Under the pieces are notes generated by a model. The model saw only the letters and a program-made list of their open reading frames with translations. It was not told the DNA's origin and ran no database searches. Of a DNA stretch of 25,130 nucleotides, positions 4,919 through 18,510 are shown in pieces. This DNA is from an archaeon. GTDB lineage: Archaea; Undinarchaeota; CAZHTU01; JBDRCC01. Within the stretch, counting starts at the first letter, position 1; every line of letters begins with the position of its first letter. The translations under genes were made by a program, and so were the position numbers. The stretch spans positions 1 through 25,130 of the forward strand of contig JBDRCC010000008.1 of NCBI GenBank assembly GCA_043822065.1, read 5' to 3'.

Positions 4919-4919
4919 A

Positions 4920-5020
4920 TGGACCCGCCGAGATTTGAACTCGGGGCCTCTACCAGTCAGGAGCCCGATTTTACCCGGGCTGTGCCAGGGTAGCGCTCTA
5001 CCAGACTGAGCTACGGGCCC
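4920..5020 (-). tRNA. tRNA-Ala(GGC) with a 27-nt intron at 37/38 (4956-4982)
   Basis: Cloverleaf with acceptor GGGCCCG/CGGGTCC (G3:U70), loop CT-GGC-A[intron]T and T-loop TTCAAAT. The intron forms a BHB-like junction with one U-U mismatch. CCA is not encoded. Confidence 0.95.
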
Positions 5021-5037
5021 ATGATTGATGCTGGTTT

Positions 5038-14648: not shown

Positions 14649-15470
14649 ATGGTCTTCGAGTACTTCCTTGAACCGGAAAAAGCCGAGCAGGACCCGAGGC
14701 AGGCGTTTCTCCTCGCGGCAATGCTCTCGACCATAGCCATACTCCTAAGCATAATTTTGTTCCCCCAATATGCCAGCTTTACCACCCTATTTTTCGTGGC
14801 TCTTGGCTCGTCACAGTTCATCCACAAGATTTTCCTCGACGAGGCAGTCGGCGCGGAAAAGGCGAAAAGCGTGAAGGAAATGCTCAAGCGGGACCTGCCG
14901 GTTACAAAAATCTACTTTTACTTTTTTCTCGGCATGGTCGCGACATTTCTGTTTTGGATAGTCGTCCTAAAAGATTATGGCTTCTTCCTCTTCCGTGCGC
15001 AGGAGGAGTTCCTTGGAATCCCGATCGCGGGCGGCAATGTCGGCGGCGGCTCGTTCGCGTTCTTGGTTATCCTCTTAAACAACATCCTCGTGCTGACAGT
15101 ATTTTTCTTCATCTCAATAGTCTTCACAGCCGGCTCCCTTTTGGTCCTCGGGTGGAACGCATCCCTTTTCGCAATGTTTATAGTCCTAGCCGCGAAGCGC
15201 GTTTCCGAATACGGCCTCCTCTCCGCAATAACCAAGATTGCGCTGATATACTCTGTGCATTCAATCCCGGAGTTTATCTCCTACTTCCTTGCGGCGAACG
15301 CAGGCGCCGTCCTATCAATGGGCATAGTGAAGCGGGGCAAAATAGATGCTGCCCTCCAGAACATAATAAACGACTCTTTTGTGCTGATGTTCCTTTCCTA
15401 CGCCATCGTGCTAATCGCTGCGTTCCTGGAGGCGTTTGTCTCGCCGCACCTGATTGCTTCGCTGTTTTAA
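14649..15470 (+). CDS. SpoIIM/DUF95-family membrane protein
   Basis: ILLNNILV, LGWNAS and HSIPEFISYFLAANAG..LS motifs, plus AAFLEAFVSP. Start at ATG 14649, about 25 nt after TTTTATAT. Confidence 0.85.
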   Translation: MVFEYFLEPEKAEQDPRQAFLLAAMLSTIAILLSIILFPQYASFTTLFFVALGSSQFIHKIFLDEAVGAEKAKSVKEMLKRDLPVTKIYFYFFLGMVATFLFWIVVLKDYGFFLFRAQEEFLGIPIAGGNVGGGSFAFLVILLNNILVLTVFFFISIVFTAGSLLVLGWNASLFAMFIVLAAKRVSEYGLLSAITKIALIYSVHSIPEFISYFLAANAGAVLSMGIVKRGKIDAALQNIINDSFVLMFLSYAIVLIAAFLEAFVSPHLIASLF

Positions 15471-15480
15471 TAAAATAAGG

Positions 15481-15572
15481 GGCCGAAGCCGAGATTTGAA
15501 CTCGGGGCGGGGGATTTCTGCAACTATTGGTTGCCACAGTCCCCCATGTTACCAGGCTACACCACTTCGGCC
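15481..15572 (-). tRNA. tRNA-His(GTG) with encoded G-1 and an 18-nt intron at 37/38 (15516-15533)
   Basis: Acceptor GCCGAAG/CTTCGGC, C73, loop CT-GTG-G[intron]A. CTGT/GCAG central helix with two 3-nt bulges. Confidence 0.95.
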
Positions 15573-15574
15573 AT

Positions 15575-15656
15575 TTGTTCGACCTAATGACTGCCCCGCG
15601 ACCTTTCTTGGTCCAGCTTCTTTTTAAAGAAGGTGGGGCTACACCACTTCGGCCAT
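15575..15656 (-). repeat. 62-nt hairpin insert plus 20-bp duplicate of the tRNA-His 5' end
   Basis: ggctacaccacttcggccat is identical at 15555-15574 and 15637-15656. The insert begins CCACCTTCTTTAAAAAGAAGCTGGACCAAGAAA. Confidence 0.85.
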
Positions 15657-15757
15657 CTTAGAATCCTGGTTTGGGGCAGCACTACTATAGACGCACCCCG
15701 ATTATTAAAGATTTTGGTATCGGAAGGTTTTTATCCTAAAAATACCCATATATCCGC

Positions 15758-18285: not shown

Positions 18286-18289
18286 ATAG

Positions 18290-18363
18290 CGCGCCTGGGC
18301 GGATTTGAACCGCCGACCGTCCGGTTAACAGCCGGGTACTCTACCAGTCTGAGCTACAGGCGC
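18290..18363 (-). tRNA. tRNA-Asn(GTT)
   Basis: Acceptor GCGCCTG/CAGGCGC, loop CT-GTT-AA, G73. Only 4 nt upstream of tRNA-Glu. Confidence 0.96.
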
Positions 18364-18364
18364 A

Positions 18365-18441
18365 GCTTTACAGTCCTTTGCGTTTCCCGTATTCTTTGCA
18401 TCAGCTTTCTTTATAAGAAAGCTGACTGAGCTACAGGCGCA
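18365..18441 (-). repeat. 61-nt hairpin insert plus 16-bp duplicate of the tRNA-Asn 5' end
   Basis: ctgagctacaggcgca is identical at 18349-18364 and 18426-18441. The insert begins TCAGCTTTCTTATAAAGAAAGCTGATGCAAAGAA. Confidence 0.85.
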
Positions 18442-18510
18442 TTTTTGCAGCTCTTTGCATACGCAAAGCTGTGCAGAGTAGATATGCTCGTTTTCTTATA
18501 AACTTATCCG

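Follow-up and report, generated by a model that had tools for sequence, protein, structure and literature searches.

A small hairpin element flanked by gene-end repeats at tRNA and protein genes of an Undinarchaeota archaeon

The window analyzed in this study, a whole stretch of 25,130 nucleotides (nt) from an archaeon of the Undinarchaeota (contig JBDRCC010000008.1, here contig C8 of the focal genome G000), carries upstream of its tRNA-His gene a second copy of the 20-nt repeat that opens this gene and, between the two copies, a 62-nt insert that begins with a small hairpin followed by the box ACCAAGAAA. We use E as the working name for this small hairpin element. The insert is one of ~25 copies of E in the focal genome, ~20 of which are flanked by direct repeats of 13 to 42 bp, and in the repeats that cover the ends of protein genes the differences between the two copies are overwhelmingly synonymous. 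We propose that E and the adjacent copy of a gene end form a cargo-less, non-autonomous recombination module moved in trans, a reading to which we give a probability of about 0.5. Moreover, E is widespread in archaea with tiny genomes, and a single family is shared by tRNA introns, the borders of attachment (att) sites, and the inserts at gene ends.

Results

Gene-end repeats preserve the coding sense

The outer edges of the repeats coincide with the termini of genes, falling at positions -3 to +1 of tRNA genes and at the stop codon plus 0 to 3 nt of protein genes; one edge comprises a start codon, its ribosome-binding site, and the overlapping stop codon of the upstream gene. Across the genomes of the phylum that were read, repeat length ranged from 9 to 64 nt and was thus not the fixed length of target duplication that characterizes miniature inverted-repeat transposable elements (MITEs). 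An earlier note on this DNA, made from the sequence alone, had proposed a target duplication of 16 to 20 bp; this range of lengths, the position of the edges, and the preservation of coding sense described below all speak against that proposal.

In ten repeat pairs at protein genes, with both copies read in the frame of the intact gene, we counted 37 differences in 309 nt. By codon, 23 were synonymous, 6 replaced one stop codon with another, 5 were non-synonymous, and none converted a stop into a sense codon; one pair encodes the identical ten residues and stop despite 9 differences in 33 nt. In a neutral simulation, in which equal numbers of substitutions with an equal share of transitions were placed randomly, the mean number of amino-acid-changing codons was 23.7 (standard deviation, 2.6) and the minimum in 20,000 runs was 13, compared with the 5 observed. 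Three pairs from G001, a genome of the same order, gave 7 synonymous and 0 non-synonymous differences, in a frame that stays open into the gene.

This excess of synonymous differences argues for att-like repeats that restore gene ends rather than for transposase target duplications that have drifted. As judged from these codons, the displaced copy appears to have been shaped by selection for the same peptide, and both gene-end copies look selected. The displaced copy would then either have been a working gene end until recently or travel with a gene-restoring element in the manner of an attP copy. Another origin of the selection, namely, overlapping convergent genes that keep the remnant under constraint, was considered and rejected: the stop codon of the neighbor lies at the outer edge of the remnant and not across it.

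A family of ~25 copies in the focal genome

The focal assembly comprises 1,026,769 bases in 22 contigs, with 52% G+C and a stated completeness of 82%. The hairpin plus box had first matched at two places outside tRNA genes as well, and regular-expression, nhmmer, and covariance-model scans combined gave the ~25 copies. In 18 of the 25, the 50 nt left of the hairpin have a significant repeat 2 to 108 nt beyond E, and two further copies show weaker or more diverged repeats by alignment. Five copies are without a flanking repeat, among them the canonical intron of a tRNA read as Thr(CGU) and a copy directly adjoining tRNA-Ala(UGC) at its 3' end. No repeat in the kilobase range was found around any of the 25 copies. 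The inserts are cargo-less and 35 to 110 nt long, and near-identical copies of E occupy unrelated sites. A family of this size bears out the suggestion, already made for the tRNA-His insert, of a small, repeated, non-autonomous element.

Repeat-flanked copies are located at tRNA 5' ends (4), at tRNA 3' ends (2), and at the stops, starts, or junctions of protein genes. Among the 41 tRNAs called by ARAGORN, those for His, Asn, Pro-UGG, and Tyr have an exact copy of their first 15 to 20 nt, 69 to 82 nt upstream; an 18-nt copy of the 3' end of tRNA-Arg(UCG) lies 72 nt downstream of it, and tRNA-Arg(UCU) has a 17-nt 3'-end copy with one mismatch. The supposed specificity for tRNA 5' ends therefore applies to only 4 of ~25 copies, the others including tRNA 3' ends, a canonical intron, and the ends and junctions of protein genes. 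The four target genes that received an annotation are ordinary ones: three encode a TctA transporter, a geranylgeranyl reductase, and a corrinoid adenosyltransferase, and the product of the fourth belongs to no family. The majority of E copies lie between convergent genes. Every repeat-flanked copy keeps the same order (displaced fragment, hairpin, box, tail, intact gene), whichever gene end is concerned, so that E runs opposite to the tRNA at 3' ends and in its direction at 5' ends. At the tRNA-Arg(UCG) locus (G000 C1:28567-28733), the intact gene ends in an encoded CCA, and the displaced 3' fragment, without CCA, is followed directly by a T-rich run.

Anatomy of the tRNA-His and tRNA-Asn loci

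A genome-wide exact-repeat scan returned the 20-nt direct repeat at tRNA-His with a period of 82 and a gap of 62. The repeated 20-mer spans positions -3 to +17 of the tRNA and ends in the D-loop (Table 1). The duplicated tRNA-His start and its hairpin insert were thus described correctly in the earlier note, as was the recurrence of the architecture at tRNA-Asn, where an exact 16-nt repeat surrounds a 61-nt insert and, with mismatches allowed, extends 17 nt farther upstream, to 18458. The absence of an integrase or transposase from the window also held. The degenerate motif that the note had derived fared less evenly: it matched the Asn copy and missed the His copy, two matches being reached in 0 of 100 shuffles. 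The covariance model of E found exactly two copies in the window, with E-values of 3e-15 and 1e-7, and Rfam at gathering score reported only rRNA and tRNA there, with no family matching the inserts. A complete tRNA follows each insert, so that neither interrupts the mature tRNA, unlike archaeal bulge-helix-bulge introns.

Table 1. Features of the tRNA-His and tRNA-Asn loci; coordinates are those of the window, and all features lie on the minus strand
Feature	Position	Strand	Basis
TATA-like box	15702-15709	-	direct sequence reading
Displaced tRNA-His 5' fragment, abutting the hairpin	15637-15656	-	exact 20-nt repeat
Whole insert, 62 nt	15575-15636	-	sequence reading
E hairpin, 24 nt (11-bp stem, conserved C.C mismatch, short loop)	15613-15636	-	covariance-model match, 47.7 bits
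Box ACCAAGAAA, 9 nt, after the hairpin	15604-15612	-	columns almost invariant in the alignment
Tail, 29 nt, differing between copies	15575-15603	-	copy comparison
Second repeat copy, start of intact tRNA-His	15555-15574	-	exact repeat
Intact tRNA-His(GUG), intron about 15516-15535	15479-15572	-	ARAGORN coordinates; cloverleaf reading for identity
Displaced tRNA-Asn 5' fragment, 16 nt, exact	18426-18441	-	repeat scan
Second E insert (hairpin 18401-18425, box 18392-18400, tail 18365-18391)	18365-18425	-	covariance model, 27 bits
Intact tRNA-Asn(GUU), second repeat copy (18349-18364) at its start	18289-18364	-	ARAGORN, Rfam, repeat scan
Additional hairpin just upstream of the Asn fragment	18448-18471	-	sequence reading; 3' arm inside the extended repeat

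The TATA-like box upstream of the displaced His fragment is probably the original tRNA-His promoter; comparable A/T boxes occur 28 to 57 nt upstream of other tRNAs in the focal genome. The identity of the tRNA was read from the cloverleaf, which shows GUG as the anticodon, G-1 encoded opposite C73, and, adjoining the anticodon, an intron of ~18 nt. ARAGORN labels the same gene Thr without its intron mode and Tyr with it, and the Rfam tRNA model does not report it at gathering score. Fragments of this kind hence mislead tRNA callers, through misnaming by ARAGORN and through missed genes. A second tRNA-His(GUG) gene of the focal genome (C6:71226-71297, minus strand) is intronless and, by eye, roughly 70% identical to the window copy, and it differs in its T-loop from the other tRNAs read in G000; one of the two tRNA-His genes may be foreign.

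The additional hairpin that precedes the Asn fragment may stem from an earlier insertion in which the present one is nested, in which case successive insertions would have taken place at the same tRNA. By ARAGORN, tRNA-Asn and tRNA-Glu are ~2 nt apart, and by Rfam ~4 nt (window 18286-18289). The two are probably co-transcribed, and the Asn insert would then occupy the leader of a two-tRNA transcript.

The hairpin is conserved and covaries

An exact-pattern scan with 26 specified bases recovered the 32-nt motif in 90 metagenome stretches from many samples (16 flagged as duplicate contexts) and in one viral contig. The alignment was built from 57 copies, 6 of them focal and 51 selected from the non-duplicate contexts among the 90. 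In the 10-pair stem, 97.2% of cells are paired versus 88.3% in shuffles, and slid controls pair at 48 to 63%. The two outermost pairs show strong covariation, one with GC, 32; UA, 14; AU, 3; CG, 3; GU, 2; other, 3, and the other with AU, 35; CG, 13; GC, 6; other, 3; the covariation score was reached by 0 of 500 shuffles. These two outer pairs lie outside the search pattern or at its free positions; the inner stem was fixed by the pattern and is hence uninformative. A C.C mismatch within the stem is conserved. The E hairpin is genuine and ancient. Inverted repeats at the two termini were not seen: each copy has a single internal hairpin, which lies at one end, nothing is conserved past the box, and the tails bear no relation to one another.

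Several other interpretations of the hairpin and its surroundings were tried and rejected. A promoter within the loop was considered because of three A/T-rich loops, but the loop of the Tyr copy is GC-closed and tetraloop-like, so that the feature is not general. For a mini-tRNA or decoy, fragment-tail pairing and the likeness of the tail to a tRNA 3' end both stayed within shuffles (P = 0.04 to 0.72). No convincing likeness to C/D-box or H/ACA RNAs, terminators, or Xer dif sites was noticed by eye. A 17-nt pattern gave isolated chance matches in unrelated bacteria, and its one archaeal match (L094) is likewise fortuitous, inside a coding sequence.

E in relatives, introns, protein genes, and a virus

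The covariance model matched 62 of 151 genomes, the focal one included, at an E-value of <=0.01; these E-values are rough, and weak matches (1e-3 to 1e-2) were not counted as presence. Strong multi-copy genomes, with their numbers of model matches, are G001 (10), G011 of the same phylum (14), G087 (32), G047 (9), and G110 (8). In G001, E is the canonical intron of tRNA-Ser(CGA), and an 18-nt duplication of the tRNA-Gln 5' end surrounds another copy (L265) in the same fragment-E-gene build as at the focal tRNA-His. The tRNA-His gene of G001 retains a promoter-like box, and E, repeat, and intron are all absent from it; the focal tRNA-Gln is in turn without a repeat. The insertions are thus lineage-specific. 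The repeats of G011 reach 51 and 64 nt, and this genome also has arrays with E after each repeat copy (L268 and L272).

Further arrangements were seen in these relatives. Just downstream of the G001 tRNA-His (L002, G001:C182, 1209-1260) lie stretches that resemble one or two partial T-arm and 3'-end tRNA fragments, possibly old att remnants. In G087, a genome of 0.6 Mb, many of the 32 model matches are back-to-back pairs; at L238 (G087:C23, 1397-1560), two inverted E copies with mutually pairing boxes interrupt the T-loop of a tRNA-Gly as an intervening sequence of ~80 nt.

Of the 90 metagenome loci, 16 have the motif inside an ARAGORN-called tRNA, where it occupies anticodon-loop or D-loop positions and occurs in either orientation; the hairpin lies 1 to 5 nt from a tRNA terminus in 26 and 15 nt away in one more. 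Folding of two intron-bearing tRNAs of the focal genome puts the E-type hairpin past a short helix and an internal loop, as a helix belonging to the intron itself. By reading, the motif is in frame within a protein gene at several metagenome loci and elsewhere separates a TATA-like box from a start codon. At L148, L226, L205, L214, and L217, a 30-nt form of E is in frame near the start of a protein gene and would add about ten residues on translation; at L217, an imperfect 15-nt repeat additionally surrounds E. On the viral contig (L234, 5499-5530), E is intergenic, beside portal-, terminase-, and methylase-like genes named from their translations.

Split-integrase elements carry E beside their att sites

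Many of the terminus-adjacent loci have a small gene in common, which lies beyond the motif. At L152, the order is an intact tRNA-Arg(UCG), three bases, E, a CcdA/ribbon-helix-helix-like frame, ~5 kb of small genes, a tyrosine integrase, and a 44-nt copy of the tRNA 3' part. The ribbon-helix-helix-like frame runs antisense through E and the tRNA end, and it crosses the repeat in one frame with the catalytic part of the integrase, so that recombination at the repeat would fuse both into one gene. This layout is the hallmark of SSV-type "suicidal" integrases. The L152 integrase matches PF00589 and PF16795, and a review (PMC8371274) assigns PF16795 to suicidal integrases; suicidal integration is described there as a trait of hyperthermophilic archaea. 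Nine of 15 such loci have a second exact copy of the tRNA end, of 41 to 54 nt, 3.9 to 6.2 kb away, and the other six are too short to tell. The split-integrase elements of 4 to 6 kb are L152, L166, L155, L181, L192, L204, L211, L218, and L227, and their contig names suggest groundwater and sediment metagenomes.

Discussion

Proposed mechanism and candidate enzymes

We propose a model in which E inserted at the D-loop position of tRNA-His, a second copy of the first 20 nt keeping the gene intact. The upstream 20-mer would be the displaced old gene start, still beside the old promoter. The flanking repeats would act as attL and attR, with the gene-end patch either carried along with the element or swapped by recombination, and entry could occur by recombination with a homologous gene end, Campbell-like or by cut-and-join at the hairpin. 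The mover would likely be a tyrosine recombinase, as in the split-integrase elements of 4 to 6 kb, or possibly a host Xer-type enzyme. Some archaeal tyrosine recombinases also act on short homology, according to parts of PMC5495485 and PMC8371274. Transcription of tRNA-His would most likely start at the old promoter and proceed through fragment, hairpin, and tail, RNase P then releasing the tRNA. In genomes where the splicing enzyme presumably tolerates it, E resides inside tRNA genes as an intron without duplication. The recombinational mechanism, the enzyme, the present mobility, and the processing of the transcript are all parts of the model that we infer; the anatomy, the family with its contexts, the covarying hairpin, the repeats that keep the coding sense, and the ties to integrase elements and to introns are observations.

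The enzymatic equipment of the focal genome bears on this model. RNase P RNA (131 bits) and a splicing endonuclease of 177 amino acids are present. The short form of splicing endonuclease is the kind with narrow specificity, and all ARAGORN-called introns of the focal genome adjoin the anticodon. A narrow endonuclease would fit this placement as well as D-loop and T-loop insertions that bring a duplicated gene end rather than being introns. EndA types are enumerated in a section of PMC5829648. The assembly encodes one tyrosine recombinase, on another contig than the window, with a SAM-like N-terminal and a catalytic domain; from these domains it looks like a housekeeping Xer-like enzyme. Y1/HUH (PF01797), Cas1 (PF01867), and reverse transcriptase (RVT_1) gave no match in the 82%-complete assembly, in which DDE transposases and integron integrases were not searched.

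Several points weigh against the proposed recombination module: (i) the 82%-complete assembly yielded no recombinase that acts on E and a single tyrosine recombinase, the Xer-like one; (ii) ~20 different targets at ordinary genes of a 1-Mb genome fit a classical site-specific integrase poorly; (iii) a circle of 60 to 150 bp is a strained substrate; (iv) neither a mixture of empty and filled alleles nor a circular junction nor a read across the insert was seen in the sole read source, one DNA run of low overlap (0.12 of words) found without any RNA run, whose contigs cover 15300-15476 and 15645-785 with none across the insert and which is uninformative on assembly or expression; (v) the hairpin touches the intact tRNA at its outer terminus in the full-size elements and the displaced fragment at its inner end in the mini-inserts, which are thus not simple internal deletions of the former; and (vi) the repeat pairs were detected by likeness, so that decayed remnants are missed and the sample is skewed to young pairs, a procedure that nevertheless does not favor synonymous differences or third codon positions.

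Alternative explanations

Of the other explanations, a MITE- or REP-like transposon (REP, repetitive extragenic palindromic) deserves the most attention, although we regard it as unlikely. Its transposase would make long, variable staggered cuts, the repeats would be target duplications, and only insertions that cover a gene end would survive. Such a transposon would readily account for a multi-copy element with near-identical copies at unrelated sites, for direct repeats around most copies, several of them exact, and for copies in frame in protein genes and in a viral contig, as expected of selfish repeats; the preference for places between convergent genes also recalls bacterial REP elements. 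It would have to accommodate repeats that vary from 9 to 64 nt, outer edges that in most cases lie within 0 to 3 nt of a gene terminus rather than randomly beyond it, and differences so overwhelmingly synonymous or stop-to-stop that the remnant is not drifting neutrally. Moreover, the copies have no terminal inverted repeats, with conservation ending after the box, and none of the Y1/HUH, Cas1, and reverse transcriptase genes searched for was found in the assembly.

The mini-inserts could also be fossils of full-size integrase elements, now immobile, whose cargo was deleted and whose att repeats and hairpin were left behind. Full-size elements with E next to att do exist, integration at tRNA 5' or 3' ends leaves pairs of fragment and gene, as parts of PMC3293823 and PMC9897764 report, and mismatches between attP and attB are inherited, as stated in part of PMC3293823. 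This explanation would nevertheless need ~20 independent deletions, all ending just past the box and just before the repeat, in a genome that has neither a partly deleted intermediate nor a kilobase-range repeat. In addition, E lies on the opposite side of the repeat and is inverted compared with the full-size elements, and the targets are ordinary genes. We consider it improbable.

More doubtful still is a device acting at the RNA level, i.e., a programmed leader, decoy, or intron, both copies being selected since spliced and unspliced RNAs would each be used. Use of both copies would explain why they stay coding, E-type hairpins form tRNA introns elsewhere, and the hairpin covaries. The occurrence of E in both orientations relative to tRNA transcription and fragment-tail pairing no better than in shuffles (P = 0.08 to 0.40) argue against the leader or decoy that had been offered as an alternative in the earlier note. 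Furthermore, as deduced from the geometry of the motif, a bulge-helix-bulge that cuts equivalent positions of two direct repeats would require a self-complementary repeat, and the endonuclease is of the short form with narrow specificity.

An assembly artefact combining a palindrome with strain variants could be invoked for a fragmented, 22-contig assembly in which no contig or read was recovered across 15555-15656, and is hardly credible, since a misjoin at a palindrome yields inverted and not direct duplications, the tails between the copies are unique, and the same build recurs at ~20 focal loci and in independent assemblies (G001 L265; G011 L268 and L272; metagenome L224 and L195).

Relation to known systems

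The proposed module shares with SSV-type tyrosine-integrase elements a direct repeat of a tRNA terminus, one copy lying in the intact gene and the other displaced, with mismatches tolerated; in both, the repeat ends at the tRNA terminus, and the same E hairpin stands beside att in elements of 4 to 6 kb. It differs in that 62 nt without an integrase, and not kilobases, separate the repeats, in the length of the repeats (13 to 42 nt versus 41 to 54 nt), in the side of the repeat on which the hairpin lies, and in its targets, which are mostly ends of protein genes. In Caldiarchaeum, a tRNA disruption with a 5' fragment upstream of a complete gene was attributed to a mobile element's integration in part of the study by Sugahara et al. 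2012 (PMC3293823), where intron gain from an attP already carrying an intron was also proposed. There, a recombinase-encoding insert of 1.8 kb lies at one locus, whereas here ~25 cargo-less copies of 35 to 110 nt share their sequence with introns across genomes. More generally, tRNA fragments beside intact genes are described in portions of PMC9897764 and PMC3293823 as a by-product of the integration of kilobase-scale elements.

Cas1-mediated integration of casposons is a poor comparison, given that PF01867 had no match and that the repeats are variable, in contrast to a duplication of 14 to 15 bp. With integron attC sites, E has in common a structured hairpin whose stem covaries and contains a conserved mismatch, clusters in the same orientation, and arrays in which repeat and E alternate; by eye, the attC core motifs are not seen in E. 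We know of no integron cassettes that duplicate the ends of target genes. REP/REPIN sequences and the Rickettsia palindromic elements are short, multi-copy, imperfect palindromes, often located between convergent genes and some of them in frame in protein genes. E shares these traits, and differs from REP/REPIN in that no RAYT/Y1 gene was found in the focal assembly. To our knowledge, neither the REP/REPIN nor the Rickettsia families are flanked by coding-preserving repeats of gene ends. Transposition of tRNA introns in Thermoproteales has reportedly been described by Fujishima and colleagues in 2010 and serves as a positive control in a preprint. As in those introns, one family of intervening sequences occurs in different tRNA types and positions; unlike them, E is not confined to tRNAs and also has copies next to integrase att sites, in protein genes, and in a virus, as well as copies with gene-end duplications.

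In the open-access full texts searched, supplements aside, we found no cargo-less insert of this size with gene-end repeats, no coding-preserving repeats at protein-gene ends around such an insert, and no single motif common to introns, att borders, and such inserts. Altogether, we rate E as a variant belonging among the att repeats of integrative elements, palindromic repeat elements, and mobile archaeal introns.

Implications for the origin of tRNA introns

The origin of archaeal tRNA introns and of tRNA fragments is a long-standing open question. A 32-nt motif present in introns (canonical, D-loop, and T-loop), at att borders, and in gene-end inserts provides a sequence family with which the route from integration to intron could be traced, and the coding-preserving repeats point to gene ends that are exchanged or carried by a very small element. 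A bolder version of the recombination module, which we put forward only tentatively, is that E is active: the hairpin would serve as the recombination handle, the carried gene end would both guide the insertion and patch the target, and split-integrase elements would shuttle the module between lineages. Landing in tRNA loops without a patch would then be the source, at the DNA level, of tRNA introns in small-genome archaea. If E is indeed such an active module, the arrival of archaeal tRNA introns becomes directly testable.

Other observations

The tRNA-Ala gene in the 16S-23S spacer of the window (4919-5021, minus strand) contains an intervening sequence; it was missed by ARAGORN without intron mode and found by Rfam. 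An unrelated short repeat, a TAGTGTAGG-like word in both orientations, forms two clusters in the focal genome, at G000 C3:16830-16943 and C6:74753-74853.

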